A stretch of 10,918 nucleotides of DNA, from positions 1 through 10,918 of the forward strand of contig PKZK01000170.1 of the NCBI GenBank assembly GCA_003133025.1. Direction: 5' to 3'. Positions 2,024 to 7,380 of the stretch are shown here, piece by piece (the first letter of the stretch is position 1; the number at the start of each line of letters is the position of its first letter). Source of the stretch: Vulcanimicrobiota bacterium (GTDB lineage Bacteria > Vulcanimicrobiota > Vulcanimicrobiia > Vulcanimicrobiales > Vulcanimicrobiaceae). A model generated the notes under the pieces. The model did no database searches. It saw only the letters and a program-made list of their open reading frames with translations, and was not told where the DNA came from. The position numbers and the translations under genes are program-made.

Positions 2024-2857
2024 CTAGGCCGGAACGGAAATTGCGGGCAGCGGAATTTCGAACGGTGCGTCGTCGCCGTCGCGCAGATTCGGCGCGACGG
2101 TCAGGCTCAGCGAACGCGGCGTGAAACGGTCGGGCGTGAAGAAGGTCAGGGCGCCCGTGTATTCCGCGCTCGCCGCAAGGGGTAAGCCCAGGCGCAACGT
2201 GCGGTCGGTGAGGCCCGCGACCTTGGTATCGATCAGATGGTACGCCGTGCCCGCATCGTCGCGCAGCACGCTGCGCCCGTAAGGCAAGAGCGTCACCTGA
2301 CCCTCGCCCGCGTTGATGAACGTCACCAGAAATTCCACGCGGCCGGTGAAAAACGAGACCTTGCGCACGATCGCGCGCAATTTCTCGACCTCGGCTGCGG
2401 CGCCGTCGGGCGTGAACGCCTTCCACGGCTTATACGGGTCCTTGATGCGCACCGCGCCGCCCTCGCCGAGCAAACCGTAGGCCACGCGCGCCGTCGCCGA
2501 CGCCGTCGCCTGATGGGCGTGATCGAAAAACGAGACCTTCTCGGAGACGACGACCACCGTGCCGAGCGAACCGGCCGGCTCGACGCGCAGCACCTTGTAC
2601 TTGCCGATGGTCAGGCGATCGGCGGCGAAGGCCGAGCCGAAGTTTTGCGCGGTGACGAAGTATTTGCGTTCGGCCGAGGTCAGCAGCCGGAACGCGTCGG
2701 CATAGCGACCCGCACCGAGCGCGCGGAGGTACCCGTCGAGCGCGGCGCGCTGCGCGGGGCTCAGCGTCGCCTGCGCTGCGGGCGCGGCCGCAAGCGCGGG
2801 CAACGACGCAGCCGTCATGCCGCTCGCGGCGAGGAGAAACAAGGTCCGGCGATTCAT
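2024..2857 (-). CDS. Exported hypothetical protein with twin-arginine-like signal peptide; C-terminal half resembles an Ig-like/DUF4352-type beta-sandwich
   Basis: MNRRTLFLLAASGMTAASLPALA contains RR, an h-region and an AxA site. The start overlaps the parB stop (ATGA). C-terminal pattern FLVTFINAGEGQVTL...LRDDAGTAY...LAASAEYTGALTF. The domain assignment is by eye only. Confidence 0.75.
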   Translation of the reverse strand: MNRRTLFLLAASGMTAASLPALAAAPAAQATLSPAQRAALDGYLRALGAGRYADAFRLLTSAERKYFVTAQNFGSAFAADRLTIGKYKVLRVEPAGSLGTVVVVSEKVSFFDHAHQATASATARVAYGLLGEGGAVRIKDPYKPWKAFTPDGAAAEVEKLRAIVRKVSFFTGRVEFLVTFINAGEGQVTLLPYGRSVLRDDAGTAYHLIDTKVAGLTDRTLRLGLPLAASAEYTGALTFFTPDRFTPRSLSLTVAPNLRDGDDAPFEIPLPAISVPA

Positions 2858-3729
2858 GCGTCCTCGGGCAGGATGACGTCGACGATGCGCGCGAGATCCG
2901 CCGCGCTCGAAAAGCGAATTTCGATGCGGCCGTCGCCGGCGGCGGCGGCAACGATGCCGACCGGCGCGCCGAGCCGGTAGCGCAGCCGGCTTTCGACCGC
3001 CTCGAGGTCGGCGGACTTGCGCGCCTGCGCCGCGCGTGCAGGCGGCGCAGCCGTTTTTTCGCGCCGCTTCGCGCTCATGCGTTCGATGTCGCGCACGGTG
3101 AGTTCGTCGCGCTCGACCTGTTCGGCGATGCTGTTGCGAATCGCCGGATCCAAGGCCAATAAGGCGCGCGCGTGACCGACGCTCAAGGCGCCGCGACGCA
3201 GCCGCGCCTTGATGGCGTCGTCGAGAGCCAATAAGCGCAAAGCGTTGGTGACCGCGGGGCGGCTCTTGCCCACGCGCTCGGCGACGCGTTCCTGCGTGAA
3301 GGCGAACTCGTCGATCAGGTGTTGAAAACCCATCGCCTCCTCGAGCGGATCGAGACCCTGACGCTGCAGGTTTTCGACGATTGCGACTTCGAGGCTCGTG
3401 CGGTCGTCGACGCTGCGCACGATCGCCGGAATCGTCGTCAAGCCGGCGGCGGACGCCGCGCGCCAGCGGCGCTCGCCCGCGACCAATTCGAACACGCCGG
3501 GCTGGGCGGATAACGGACGCACGATGATCGGCACGAGCACGCCGAGTTCTCGAATCGACTGTTCGAGTTCGCCCAAACTCTCGGCGTCGAAGGTCGTGCG
3601 CGGTTGACGCGGATTGGGCCGGATCGCATCGACGGGCACCTCGCTCGTCGCGCCTTCGCGCGCATTCTCGGGCGGACGCTGATCCCCGAGCAACGCGCCG
3701 AGGCCGCGACCGAGTCCGCGTTTGGTCAT
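2854..3729 (-). CDS. parB: Chromosome partitioning CTPase ParB/Spo0J
   Basis: Starts MTKRGLGRGLGALL (ParA-interacting peptide), then PNPRQPR, GERRWRA (GxxRxxA CTP motif), ENLQR and HTH TQERVAERVGKSRPAVTNALRLL. ATG 3729 overlaps the parA stop (ATGA). Confidence 0.97.
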   Translation of the reverse strand: MTKRGLGRGLGALLGDQRPPENAREGATSEVPVDAIRPNPRQPRTTFDAESLGELEQSIRELGVLVPIIVRPLSAQPGVFELVAGERRWRAASAAGLTTIPAIVRSVDDRTSLEVAIVENLQRQGLDPLEEAMGFQHLIDEFAFTQERVAERVGKSRPAVTNALRLLALDDAIKARLRRGALSVGHARALLALDPAIRNSIAEQVERDELTVRDIERMSAKRREKTAAPPARAAQARKSADLEAVESRLRYRLGAPVGIVAAAAGDGRIEIRFSSAADLARIVDVILPEDA

Positions 3730-4499
3730 CGCACGGCCTCGGTGCCCGCGGCCACTTCGCGCGCGAGCGCGAGATAGGCTTGCGCGCCGCGGCTCTTCAC
3801 GTCGAAGAGCGCCGCGGGTTTGCCGAACGAGGGGGCCTCGGAAAGCCTGATGTTGCGAGGGATCTGCGTGCGAAACACCTGGTCGGGAAAATACGCGTTG
3901 ACTTCGTCGAGCACTTCGGTCGCGAGCTTGGTGCGCCCGTCGAACATCGTGACGAGCACGCCGGTCAAACGCAGATTCGGATTGAGCGCTTCGCGAATGC
4001 GCTGCACGACGGAGGTCAATTGCGAGAGACCTTCCAGCGCGTAATATTCCGCTTGCACCGGGATCAACACTTCGCTCGCCGCGGTCAAGGCGTTGAGCGT
4101 CAACAACCCCAGCGACGGCGGGCAATCGATCAACACGAATTCGTAGCGCGAAGCGAGCGGCGCGAGCACCGTCTTGAGCCGCGTTTCGCGCGACAGCGCG
4201 GAGACGAGTTCGATCTCCGCGCCGGCCAGCGCCATCGTGGCCGGAATGATGTCGAGATTGGCGACGCCCGCGGGCAGCACCGCATCGGCCGCCGGAACGC
4301 CGGAAAGTAATACGCCGTAGATATCACGCTCGAGCCCGCGTTTGTCGATACCCAAGCCGCTGCTGGTATTGCCTTGCGGATCGATGTCGATCAAGAGCAC
4401 GCTGTGGCCCAAGAGCGCAAGCGACGCGCCGAGATTGACGGCGGTCGTGCTCTTGCCGACGCCGCCTTTCTGATTGACGATAGCGATCGTGCGCGTCAC
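3726..4499 (-). CDS. parA: Chromosome partitioning ATPase ParA/Soj
   Basis: Deviant Walker A NQKGGVGKSTT, DIDPQGN, IDCPPSLG, PVQAEYYALEG and IPRNIRLSEAPSFG. Start at GTG 4499 with GGAG 5 nt upstream, overlapping the stop of the upstream ORF (GTGA); 257 aa. Confidence 0.97.
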   Translation of the reverse strand: MTRTIAIVNQKGGVGKSTTAVNLGASLALLGHSVLLIDIDPQGNTSSGLGIDKRGLERDIYGVLLSGVPAADAVLPAGVANLDIIPATMALAGAEIELVSALSRETRLKTVLAPLASRYEFVLIDCPPSLGLLTLNALTAASEVLIPVQAEYYALEGLSQLTSVVQRIREALNPNLRLTGVLVTMFDGRTKLATEVLDEVNAYFPDQVFRTQIPRNIRLSEAPSFGKPAALFDVKSRGAQAYLALAREVAAGTEAVR

Positions 4500-4867
4500 G
4501 CGCGCTCCGCCGGCACCGGCGCATCGAGACCGTAGCGGCGCTTCATTGCGGAATACCGTGCGTAGCTGTGTTCGTCGATCTCGGCCCAGGGCAGCGAATC
4601 GAGTAACGGCACGAGGCGCTCGACCAGCGCGTTGCCGCGGAACATCAATTGATAGTACGTGCGTCCTCCGTGCGCGTAGGGACCGTAGAGCCGCCCGAGG
4701 GGCCAACGGTCGAGCAGCCACTCGAACAACCGGCGGTGCCGGACGTGCATGCGGAGCGTCACCTGCGGCTGCTTTCCGTCGCCGCCGAAAGAGCCCTCGC
4801 CAATCAGGACGCCCAGGAGCACGCCCAACGCGAAAGGATCGCTGCCCGGCTGGTCTGAAGGTTCCAT
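4496..4867 (-). CDS. Stand-alone single-motif LAGLIDADG-fold protein (homing-endonuclease-like, probable DNA-binding protein)
   Basis: 123 aa. N-terminal helix FALGVLLGVLIGEGSF fits the LAGLIDADG motif (L-x-G-x-x-x-G-[DE]-G-S). It is followed by QVTLRM, helix RRLFEWLLDRWPLG, hairpin RLYGPY...YYQLMFRG and helix ALVERLVPLLD. It fills the gap between cca and parA and is coupled to parA by GTGA. Confidence 0.72.
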   Translation of the reverse strand: MEPSDQPGSDPFALGVLLGVLIGEGSFGGDGKQPQVTLRMHVRHRRLFEWLLDRWPLGRLYGPYAHGGRTYYQLMFRGNALVERLVPLLDSLPWAEIDEHSYARYSAMKRRYGLDAPVPAERA

Positions 4868-4873
4868 CGCCGA

Positions 4874-4879
4874 AGCCTA
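4874..4879 (-). promoter_or_regulatory. Putative -10 (TAGGCT) for a leaderless transcript starting at ATG 4867
   Basis: Minus strand CAGTA-TAGGCT-TCGGCG-ATG: TAnnnT 6 nt before ATG, with no SD. Confidence 0.45.
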
Positions 4880-4892
4880 TACTGTTTCACTG

Positions 4893-6299
4893 TCACGTTT
4901 CCTGTGAAACATCGGCGCGTTGCCCGGCGACGGCCTCGGCTTCCCGGTGTAAAATGGCGAGCTGCCCTTCGCGATCCAGGCCCGGATCGTCGAGCACGGC
5001 TTCCAGAACCGCGCGGAGCAAGATGCCGACCGCCGGGCCGCCACGCGAGCCCCTCGGGAGGCGTCCCGCGGCAACGAGCGCGTCGATCGCATCGGCGCCG
5101 CTGACGGCCAGATCCTTGACGGACAACGGCGGGCGCTCAGCGAGCGTTTGCCACACGCGCTCCTGGAACTGCTCGTTCTCCGGGCCGCGTTTGGGCAGAC
5201 CGCTGCCCGCGATGTCGGCCGCACGCACGGCGAACTGCAATTCCAGATTATCGATGCCCACGCGATTGATGAAGCGTCGGATTGCGGCCGGCGACAGCGC
5301 CGGATCGGCCTGGTACATATGCTGCCGCACGAGCCGCTCGGTCCGCTCGACGATCTCGCCGGGAAAGCGCAGCCGCAGGAGCAGCTCTCGCACCATGTCG
5401 GCGCCGACGTGCTCGTGCCGGTAGAAGTGCGGCCCATCCTTGGTCCGCGGCTTCCCGACGTCGTGGAGCAGGGCGGAGATGCGCAGCAACAGGTCGCCCG
5501 GCGGCGTGGCGTCGACGGTGGCCAACCCGTGGCCGAGCACGTCGAACGCGTGGAAGACGTTCTGCTCGACGCCGGCGCCCTCGTCCAGCTCCGGCAAGAC
5601 GTAGGCGAGCATACCCGTCTCGCGCATGATCGCAAATCCGGCCGACGGACGCGGCGCCAGCTCAATCAGTTTGATCAGTTCGTCGCGTACGCGCTCGGGC
5701 GAGACCGTGGCAACCAGCGGCGCGGCCTCGCGCATCGCCTCGAGCGTCGCGGCCGTGATCGCAAAATCGAATCGGGCCGCGAACTGGCAGGCCCGCAGCA
5801 GCCGCAGCGGGTCTTCCAGAAAGGCCTCGGGCTTGAGCACGTCGATCCGGCGCGCCTCGATGTCGGCCACGCCGCCGTACGGATCGACGAGCGCGCCGCT
5901 GCCCACGGCGCGGGCCAGCATATTGATGCGGAAGTCGCGACGCGCCAGATCGTCCTCGAGGGAGACGTCCGGTCCCGCCTCGACGGCGAAATCGCGATGC
6001 CCCACACCGGTCGAGCGCTCCCGGCGCGGCAGGGCGACGTCGACGGTCAGTCCGTCGAGCGTGCACTTGACGACGGCGAACGACACGCCGACCAGTTCGG
6101 CGCGGCCCACGGAAGCCAAGCGCGCGACCAGGTCGTCGAGCTCGATGCCGGTGACGACGTAGTCGAGATCCTTGGCCGGACGCGGGACGCCGTCGAGCGC
6201 CGAACGCACCTCGTCGCGGACGCGGCCGCCAACCGCATACAGCGCTCCCGCCGGCAACGCCGCGGCGAGGCGCCGGTCGACCGACTCGGCGTCAAGCAT
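4893..6299 (-). CDS. cca: CCA tRNA nucleotidyltransferase (class II) with HD domain
   Basis: VGGRVRD...KDLD, flexible loop (RRERSTGVGHRDF), EDDLARRDFRIN, EDPLRLLRA, SPERVRDEL and HD motif LLHDVGK. The start overlaps the rsmG stop by 8 nt. Confidence 0.9.
   Translation of the reverse strand: MLDAESVDRRLAAALPAGALYAVGGRVRDEVRSALDGVPRPAKDLDYVVTGIELDDLVARLASVGRAELVGVSFAVVKCTLDGLTVDVALPRRERSTGVGHRDFAVEAGPDVSLEDDLARRDFRINMLARAVGSGALVDPYGGVADIEARRIDVLKPEAFLEDPLRLLRACQFAARFDFAITAATLEAMREAAPLVATVSPERVRDELIKLIELAPRPSAGFAIMRETGMLAYVLPELDEGAGVEQNVFHAFDVLGHGLATVDATPPGDLLLRISALLHDVGKPRTKDGPHFYRHEHVGADMVRELLLRLRFPGEIVERTERLVRQHMYQADPALSPAAIRRFINRVGIDNLELQFAVRAADIAGSGLPKRGPENEQFQERVWQTLAERPPLSVKDLAVSGADAIDALVAAGRLPRGSRGGPAVGILLRAVLEAVLDDPGLDREGQLAILHREAEAVAGQRADVSQET
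4896..4911. promoter_or_regulatory. parS-like centromere site
   Basis: CGTTTCCTGTGAAACA matches the consensus TGTTTCACGTGAAACA at 13 of 16 positions. It encodes the DVSQET tail of cca and lies about 400 bp upstream of parA. An extra perfect half-site TGTTTCAC is at 4883-4890. Confidence 0.7.
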
Positions 6300-6978
6300 C
6301 CGCGCTACAGAGCGGGCGTCTTCCGGGCACGCCGCCCCGGCGGGGGAAACGCGCCGGCGTCGCGCCGCGCTTTTCGAAGATGACGATGCGGCGCACGCCT
6401 TCGAGCGGTATCTCTTCGACGCGGGCAGCGCCGAGCACGAGCGCGGCGTCGTCGGCCGCGTCCCGTTCGCCGGGTTCCTCGCGCCCGCGCTGCAAGAGCG
6501 CCCGGCCGCCGAGCGCCAGAAACGGCACCGTCAGCTCCAGCACCGTCGGGAGCGAAGCCACGCCCCGCGCGGTGGCGACGCTGAAGCGTTCCCGTAGGTC
6601 CGGTCTCCGTGCGGCATCCTCAGCGCGCAGGCAGAGGACCTGGCCCGCGATGCCCAGCGCCGCCAACATCTCCTCGAGGAAGCGGGCCTTCTTCGCGACC
6701 GACTCGATCAGCGTGACCGGCACGCCCGCGGCGAGCGCTAGCGGAATGGCCGGGAAGCCGCCGCCGCTCCCGATATCCACGAGCGGCCCGGTCACGAACT
6801 CTGCCACCGTCAGCGAGTCGCGAATATGCACGGCGACCGCCGACGGATCGCGCGCCGACGTCAAGTTGACCTTGGCGTTGCGCTCGAGCAGCAGGGCGCT
6901 GAAGCGCCCAAGGCGCTCGGCTATCGCCGGGTCGGGGTGAAGCGCCGCGTCGCTTTCATCCGGGGAAATGGGGCTCAT
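6292..6978 (-). CDS. rsmG: 16S rRNA m7G527 methyltransferase RsmG/GidB
   Basis: NAKVNLTS, HIRDSL, SAM motif DIGSGGGFPAIPLA, ESVAKKARFL, RAED and C-terminal PARFPRRGGVPGRRPL. Canonical position after mnmG. Start uncertain: ATG 6978 gives a typical 228 aa; ATG 7071 is an alternative. Confidence 0.93.
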   Translation of the reverse strand: MSPISPDESDAALHPDPAIAERLGRFSALLLERNAKVNLTSARDPSAVAVHIRDSLTVAEFVTGPLVDIGSGGGFPAIPLALAAGVPVTLIESVAKKARFLEEMLAALGIAGQVLCLRAEDAARRPDLRERFSVATARGVASLPTVLELTVPFLALGGRALLQRGREEPGERDAADDAALVLGAARVEEIPLEGVRRIVIFEKRGATPARFPRRGGVPGRRPLCSADA

Positions 6979-7052
6979 CCTTTCTCGATTGTCAGCAAAG
7001 TCCGCGTGCGGCCGCCAAATGCGACAGTCACCCGGGTGTCCATTATCCTGGA

Positions 7053-7248
7053 AACTGGTGGTATTGGACATCGCCTTCCGTCGTGGCGATCTGTAACGCG
7101 GCCGGCCGCGCACGAAGAGTAGGAGCTCCCCAAGCCGAGCCTGTGCGGCGCGCTACCGTGAAACCCTGAGACTCACGTCGCGCCGTGCGTTCCCAGTCTT
7201 CCGGGAGGACACTTCGTGAAGTTCATCTCCGACAGCATCTTCTCAGTT
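7053..7248. ncRNA. Candidate structured non-coding RNA or long structured leader (family and strand unresolved)
   Basis: Nested complementary segments form one long rod: 7111-7117/7212-7218, 7126-7130/7203-7207, 7146-7152/7179-7185 and 7157-7161/7173-7177. Side hairpins at 7070-7090 and 7097-7110, and possible closing pairing 7053-7057/7244-7248. Confidence 0.4.
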
Positions 7249-7350
7249 GCCCCGGTTTTGGCATCCGTCGCAGGCCGCCGGCAAACGCCGCGCCCAAACC
7301 GAGGTGCATACCGCCGCTGCAGCCGCTCGCTCCGGCATTCGACGGCGCAA

Positions 7351-7359
7351 ACGATAGCA
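7351..7359 (-). promoter_or_regulatory. Putative extended -10 promoter (TGCTATCGT) downstream of mnmG, pointing toward rsmG
   Basis: TGn-TAnnnT match 22-30 nt after the mnmG stop. Confidence 0.35.
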
Positions 7360-7380
7360 TCCGAACCGGCGACATCGGCT

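Follow-up and report, generated by a model that had tools for sequence, protein, structure and literature searches.

The window, as we call the whole 10,918-nucleotide stretch of DNA analysed here, holds a small free-standing gene immediately ahead of parA and parB whose product is predicted to adopt a LAGLIDADG fold, and the question it raises is what a fold of homing endonucleases does beside a chromosome segregation module. Chromosomal ParABS is treated as a system of three parts with one near-universal 16-bp parS. The genes concerned are:

2854..3729, minus strand: parB, an ordinary parS-type CTPase with a GERRWRA motif, in which Arg157 and Gly185 are the equivalents of Caulobacter R173 and G201
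3726..4499, minus strand: parA, a Soj-type ATPase (Pfam), whose GTG start overlaps the stop of the LAGLIDADG gene
4496..4867, minus strand: the predicted LAGLIDADG-fold gene (P0001), single-motif, 123 aa, with Glu24 at the catalytic-acid position and Met40 at the usual Gln position
4893..6299, minus strand: CCA-adding/poly(A) polymerase-HD gene (cca/HD; Pfam), upstream context
6292..6978, minus strand: rsmG (gidB; Pfam), context from the origin-region cluster

The minus-strand order is a partial ORF that we take to be jag-like, mnmE, mnmG, rsmG, cca/HD, the LAGLIDADG gene, parA, parB, two unnamed genes and thiE. The 123-aa ORF runs from 4867 to 4496, contains LLGVLIGEGSFGGDGKQ and ends in a TGA that overlaps the GTG of parA (GTGA); the plus strand at 4496-4867 is interrupted by stops, and the GC content of the gene (0.67; 0.82 at third positions) is like that of its neighbours. 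Contigs of other peat and moss runs span 4425-4914 and 4758-5282 with 2-3 differences, covering both the gene and the sequence upstream of it, so the gene is not an assembly artefact and the ORF described in an earlier note on this DNA is real. No gene-skipping joint was found among the 15 of 28 joints between close contigs that were listed in four DNA runs, a comparison in which contigs cannot prove absence. The flanking cca/HD and parA genes are intact, with open frames and the expected Pfam domains; an intron- or intein-encoded enzyme was rejected on this basis, in agreement with the earlier note, and the position at the head of the parAB operon that the same note assigned to the gene is not clear, as the cca/HD stop lies just 25 bp upstream. 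Among the matches listed in GTDB, the closest named relatives are Vulcanimicrobiota (Eremiobacterota) MAGs. Elsewhere in the window, two minus-strand genes between parB and thiE (1194-1847 and 2024-2857) encode proteins with signal-peptide- or lipoprotein-like N-termini that have no Pfam match and have counterparts in 2/80 and 3/80 related loci, respectively, and the mnmG-rsmG interval of about 400 bp (6980-7380) holds no convincing gene; relatives carry variable inserts in their cluster.

Sequence searches alone gave a faint signal for the fold. The window protein itself had no match in Pfam, NCBIfam or PHROGs. Across 90 relatives, Pfam returned weak matches to LAGLIDADG_3 in 15 (best E 0.028) and to LAGLIDADG_2 in 10 (best E 0.1); a PDB sequence search with the window protein returned I-OnuI variants only (E 0.09-0.85), and the same search with a tandem fusion from the family, P0122, gave no match. 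In the ESM Atlas, the window protein falls at 0.96 with clusters automatically named LAGLIDADG-domain proteins, and relatives in UniRef carry the same automatic label. The AlphaFold model (pLDDT 91, pTM 0.82) comprises a helix at residues 11-24, strands at 25-29 and 34-41, a helix at 42-54, strands at 59-66 and 69-77, and a helix at 78-90, which is the expected alpha-beta-beta-alpha-beta-beta-alpha core with a first turn of four residues. Foldseek with this model returned LAGLIDADG proteins in 43 of 43 listed rows, and VIA-align ranked LAGLIDADG nucleases first (best Z 12.4 to 3uvf, rmsd 2.3, 104 residues aligned), with WhiA below them (Z 7.9, 5.4 and 4.6). A single-motif LAGLIDADG fold, which the earlier note had read from the letters, is strongly supported by these structural predictions. 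PHROG 5046, labelled as an HNH endonuclease, matches 47 of the 90 family members (best E 9e-6) and may be a mislabelled LAGLIDADG family, the nearest phage kin.

In the family alignment, Gly15 and Gly19 of the motif helix are invariant, Glu24 aligns with the GEG glutamate of the I-OnuI variants, and Met40 occupies the position of their active-site Gln; the invariant Asp98 we take to be probably at the peripheral Lys position. Natural tandem fusions occur in Binatia-like genomes (L038, 6001-6651, and P0122), and P0122 is modelled as a two-domain LAGLIDADG protein (Z 18.8, 204 residues aligned, rmsd 3.0, to two-motif enzymes); because this fusion models as a two-motif enzyme, the family probably dimerises canonically, through the first (motif) helix. 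A complex prediction with two copies of the protein and ParB scored 0.00, giving no answer and no evidence either way. Other fusions join the gene in frame to the downstream cca/HD gene (L019 and L024, from G036 and G299; 574 and 535 aa, with Glu24 changed to Gly) or to RsmG-like sequence (P0202), and these are either real or read-through artefacts.

The family comprises 2,413 relatives at the 90% level and 401 clusters at the 50% level, and GTDB holds at least 558 loci, of which the best 80 were examined for context. Across phyla, relatives are about 55-70% identical to the window protein. The synteny check that the earlier note had proposed links the gene firmly to the origin region: 79 of these best 80 of at least 558 loci adjoin rsmG and/or parA, the exception being a second, unlinked copy (L088) without a site, in the genome of L038, which has a linked copy too. 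Within the window's own family, 29 of 29 fetched loci have cca, rsmG or parA as a neighbour. The best 80 GTDB loci show the gene in at least six different placements or orientations, and those seen are cca-gene-parA, rsmG-gene-cca, mnmG-gene-rsmG, gene-rsmG-parA, rsmG-gene-parA, after parB, divergent from parA, and inverted. Named cultured carriers include Deinococcus wulumuqiensis, D. radiomollis, Meiothermus hypogaeus and Conexibacter arvalis. The distribution is patchy, with the gene in 38/206 genomes of the window's family, 0/94 in the other families of its phylum and 5/121 in the Conexibacter class.

What the earlier note overlooked is an extended parS site just upstream of the gene, made up as follows:

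4883..4911, minus strand: extended parS, 29 bp, T-GTTTCAC-AGGAAAC-GTGACA-GTGAAAC-A, with the core GTTTCAC-N13-GTGAAAC at 4884-4910
4896..4911, no strand assigned: parS-like 16-mer with a perfect left arm and a degenerate inner arm, within the final cca/HD codons
4883..4895, minus strand: carrier-specific 13-bp extension that ends in a third perfect ParB half-site (GTGAAACA) and faces the LAGLIDADG gene

The extended site lies 15 bp upstream of the LAGLIDADG gene. The 16-mer at 4896-4911 has 3 mismatches to the parS consensus (0.06 such matches expected by chance), and the extended site at 4884-4910 is the sole one of its kind in the window's assembly (80% complete), in which no exact canonical parS was found. 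Among 110 carrier loci, which include at least eight duplicates between two sets, GTTTCAC-N13-GTGAAAC with at most one mismatch is present in 101, and the site lies no more than 260 bp upstream of the gene in 98, usually with the extension facing the gene. A scan of arm spacers up to 25 gave 152 matches for a spacer of 13 and 57 for a spacer of 0, mostly inside the former, and no more than 3 for any other. In 95 distinct sites, the outer arms are near invariant, little of the inner arm beyond its first G and last C is retained, and the third arm follows after six bases. In a few relatives that share the window's gene order (L002, L004 and L014), the spacer is 14 or 15 bp long or the third arm is degenerate, indicating that spacing is relaxed in the window's clade. 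At window position 4891, contigs of three other runs have C for T, which brings the spacer nearer the family consensus.

The extended site can also be found away from the gene. G513 (L178:7177-17140) has an intact extended site just after mnmG, separated from the gene by about 10 kb of ordinary genes, and in other genomes the site lies downstream of the gene or 1.4 or 4.7 kb distant; its retention at such positions indicates that it is more than an operator. Two explanations of its origin were rejected: a tandem duplication, as the sequence past the third arm is not repeated, and a cassette with terminal inverted repeats, as inverted flanking sites occur in some clades only.

Gene and site occur together with few exceptions. 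In tallies that overstate the number of independent events because the sampled genomes are kin, the Deinococcota have the gene in 37/91 genomes and the exact site in 37/37 carriers versus 0/54 non-carriers, the family around Conexibacter arvalis has the gene in 29/61 and the exact site in 26/29 carriers versus 0/32 non-carriers, and the window's family has the exact site in 32/38 carriers versus 2/168 non-carriers, those two lacking the inner arm. A carrier in the window's family is defined by a strong match, so that a single weak match (G144) counts as a non-carrier; the genomes flagged as unpublished (G128, G248, G213, G264, G238 and G246) are all non-carriers and enter the denominators only. 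Two of the three Conexibacter-family carriers without the exact site have a one-mismatch site, and the third has a divergent gene copy and no third arm. This copy (L181:5199-5489, G437) reads GVSRGTPQ in the first hairpin in place of GGDGKQPQ, has no upstream site, and is followed by half-sites without the third arm, a possible case of protein and site having changed together.

Genomes without the gene show what occupies the same slot in its absence. In 30 own-family non-carriers, hand-picked from the 168 and all retaining the gene cluster, a plain parS-like 14-mer is present at the locus in 29 and a third arm in 1; the latter, in the rsmG-cca interval of G115 (L112), has one mismatch and was probably left behind when the gene was lost. 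Counting canonical parS with no more than one mismatch, the Conexibacter family has 84 sites in 32 non-carriers (19 for a reversed-pattern control) versus 17 in 29 carrier genomes (control 13), the latter being background level. Two to five perfect parS occupy the rsmG slot in 5 of 5 fetched non-carrier loci of this family, and a genome-wide search of C. arvalis found the split site only and no canonical match. As parS is often degenerate in own-family non-carriers too, weakening of the inner arm is clear in the Conexibacter family only. Judged by this distribution, the extended site is what stands in for ordinary parS in carriers. The link to ParABS that the earlier note proposed is strongly supported and tighter than claimed, in that the gene travels with an extended parS of its own.

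The partner proteins appear conventional. Pfam and alignment identify the window ParA as an ATPase and ParB as a CTPase with parS-type specificity residues. Among 86 carrier ParBs, Arg157 is invariant and Gly185 is conserved in at least 90%. Carrier ParB retains the CTPase motif and has an unchanged recognition helix; the equivalent Caulobacter residues, R173 and G201, are given as parS-specificity residues in the available part of PMC7383237. No carrier-specific change was found in ParB (35 versus 27 sequences, compared outside the C-terminal domain of the non-carrier proteins) or in ParA (36 versus 30).

The earlier note had suggested that the gene is domesticated and had proposed a dN/dS calculation, which yielded about 0.1 (0.04-0.15 in 12 pairs), similar to ParB and indicating purifying selection. 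The acidic motif residue, which it noted as retained, is present in the window protein and in 66/66 loci outside the window's phylum, not what one would expect of a dead enzyme. Within the window's family, Gln, Ala or Gly takes the place of Glu24 in 13/38 carriers belonging to at least five separate lineages. Among the relatives without Glu24, dN/dS is 0.06-0.21 (13 of 14 pairs computable; bootstrap upper bounds of 0.36 or less). Gene and host distances are correlated (Spearman 0.73 against a permutation maximum of 0.37; 37 genomes, FastTree trees), and gene clades mostly match host phyla in a tree of 44 of the best 80 GTDB loci, which left out 28 Solirubrobacterales and 8 loci without full ParA. 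A few placements conflict with the host (G183 with genus g19, and a Bacillota copy among Binatia) and suggest transfer. On a 67-genome tree of hand-picked genomes, gene presence requires 14 changes, so the gene is dispensable. The tree congruence, the low dN/dS and the recurrent replacement of the catalytic acid favour domestication over other readings without establishing it, and patchiness counts against it. The earlier note had also named a distribution that would point to a mobile endonuclease, namely patchy homologs in unrelated contexts with clean gene-less alleles: the gene is patchy and gene-less slots with plain parS exist, and the contexts are not unrelated.

The reading we favour, and consider on balance probable from the sequence patterns, is that the protein has been domesticated as a DNA-binding dimer, a cofactor gating the loading of ParB at the extended centromere. 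The LAGLIDADG dimer would bind either the 13-bp extension or the middle of the 29-mer, cutting not being required, and the bound dimer would control ParB loading or spreading at the site. The extension is likely the target of the protein, because it is lost when the gene is lost, and ParB likely still acts at the site, because its ParB-type arms persist. In carriers that have a destroyed inner arm and no other parS, ParB most plausibly depends on the partner. IHF acts at plasmid P1 parS, where it aids loading of the ParB-family protein. By the same logic, the bound dimer would most likely bend or organise the site so that ParB can load, because the inner arm in carriers is often weakened and other parS are few. 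An alternative mode of the same model is a one-sided roadblock to ParB sliding.

The strongest competitor to a gating cofactor is an active free-standing homing-type nuclease that cuts palindromic plain parS, is survived by carriers because their rewritten parS is bound and left uncut, and spreads as a cassette that converts gene-less origin regions, a form of centromere drive with inactivation and domestication in some lineages only. We regard it as unlikely, and the observations divide on it. The intact Glu24 outside the window's phylum is in its favour, and the purifying selection that continues after loss of the acid, together with the Met and, probably, Asp at the peripheral catalytic positions, is against it. 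Depletion of perfect parS in carriers is what cutting would produce, and 5/6 own-family carriers with an exact canonical parS belong to the Glu-to-Gln clade, which amounts to one evolutionary event; an exact parS is, however, present immediately upstream in Glu-intact G139 and elsewhere in the genome in G438 and G443, in which Glu24 was not read. A drive element would fit a gene that is invariably located at a parS slot, in varied positions and patchily, whereas the trees are broadly congruent with phylum-level clades dominant, no relatives were found in the phage and plasmid sets (IMG/VR, PLSDB and INPHARED), and no decayed copies are evident among 104 carriers, where the stops, flagged but not individually excised, fall at the end of the gene or close to it. 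In the accessible text of a review, peripheral Gln and Lys are only moderately conserved in LAGLIDADG enzymes and palindromes are recognised by single-motif dimers, both of which suit a nuclease, and I-AniI is killed by a Gln-to-Met plus Lys-to-Met double change (PMC3017599). A parS-cutting drive may also be the origin of the system, even if the cofactor model fits the present.

A second alternative, which we consider improbable, is that the protein regulates transcription of its own gene and of rsmG-parA-parB, with the 29-mer serving as an operator for repression alone or for locking of a sliding ParB clamp in the manner of KorA and KorB. The usual location of the site, at most 260 bp upstream and with the extension turned towards the gene, would suit an operator, as would the 6-bp spacer, often TTGACG and resembling a -35 box, but no fixed spacing to a -10-like hexamer emerged in 94 distinct downstream sequences, and the window region gave no sigma-70 match. 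Partners that lock the clamp of a ParB-family protein are known (PMC13768133, in the sections available). Our low estimate reflects the variable promoter spacing and the sites located downstream or at distances of 1.4, 4.7 and 10 kb from the gene; an operator would, besides, leave the genome-wide loss of ordinary parS unexplained. A passenger, that is, an old endonuclease relic near the origin without a segregation role, is very improbable and largely refuted, since the many close relatives without the gene and the lack of visible ParA/ParB co-adaptation are outweighed by a dN/dS of about 0.1, by 55-70% identity between phyla and by the almost complete association with one specific site in three phyla.

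How the candidate cofactor relates to known systems can be considered for each of its components. It shares with single-motif homing endonucleases (I-CreI, I-MsoI, I-CeuI, I-Vdi141I and I-TnaI) the predicted core fold (Z 8-10 to these chains), the glycine-rich first helix ending in an acid and, in the modelled fusion P0122, dimer-type packing. It is only 10-19% identical to these enzymes and, unlike them, has a very short first hairpin and a Met at the Gln position and has repeatedly lost the acid; its gene is free-standing, chromosomal, single-copy, mostly vertical and tied to parS, not to an intron or intein. By its predicted fold the protein falls within the LAGLIDADG structural superfamily, but it lacks the signs of mobility of a homing endonuclease: the gene is free-standing, was found in none of the viral, plasmid and phage sets, and has a tree in broad agreement with that of the host.

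WhiA (DUF199) is likewise a LAGLIDADG fold that bacteria have retained for a role connected with the chromosome, and the earlier note had invoked it as a precedent. The common fold stands, and the analogy is a loose one: in the available sections of PMC3240954, Streptomyces WhiA binds the parABp2 promoter and comprises two motifs plus an HTH domain that drives DNA binding, whereas the window protein is one domain of about 105 residues with no HTH in the AlphaFold model and with its own adjacent site. Membership in WhiA was rejected, as 0/90 members match it in Pfam or NCBIfam and the protein is a single domain without HTH.

The carriers share with ordinary chromosomal ParABS using a 16-bp parS, such as Thermus thermophilus parSc, the same ordinary ParA and ParB and the mnmG-rsmG-parA-parB cluster, and differ in the 13-bp extension, the third half-site and the dedicated linked protein; in most Conexibacter-family carriers, moreover, the inner arm has been destroyed, and the family's carriers have few other parS left. 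The first 16 bp of many Deinococcota sites are those of Thermus parSc (TGTTTCCCGTGAAACA, on the opposite strand, last base aside), which was shown to bind ParB (PMC4409726, in the part available); for D. radiodurans, a segS consensus is given in the table of a review. Comparable too are plasmid P1 parS-IHF and RK2 KorB-KorA/TrbA, where a ParB-family site has extra boxes and a second DNA-binding protein shapes loading or halts the clamp; KorA, in the available text, locks the sliding KorB clamp (PMC13768133). These are plasmid systems with unrelated partner folds, whereas here a LAGLIDADG domain is found on the main chromosome, and by analogy the protein can be likened to an accessory centromere-binding factor built from a homing-endonuclease fold. 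Literature searches within open full texts, without supplements, returned papers on WhiA, introns and ParB in general and no description of the gene family or of the gene-site pairing, neither of which is mentioned in the available portions of PMC7022226, PMC10786196 and PMC8987985.

A bolder version of the cofactor reading, plausible although we would lean slightly against it, is that many bacteria segregate with a four-part system in which ParB by itself is unable to use the centromere. Loading at a split parS would be licensed by a captured homing-endonuclease dimer, which would turn the centromere into a switchable one, and the origin may lie in a selfish parS-cutter that forced the rewrite. 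Across several phyla, an alternative centromere architecture with a dedicated partner protein appears to replace the standard parS, and the gene likely adds a fourth component to the segregation machinery, one that is apparently absent from print. The extended site also explains why consensus searches fail to find parS in some genomes, and the carriers make the regulation of ParB loading at parS, a long-standing question, directly testable. If the cofactor reading is true, the family would be a second independent domestication of LAGLIDADG after WhiA; if the nuclease reading is true, it would be a selfish element aimed at the bacterial centromere.
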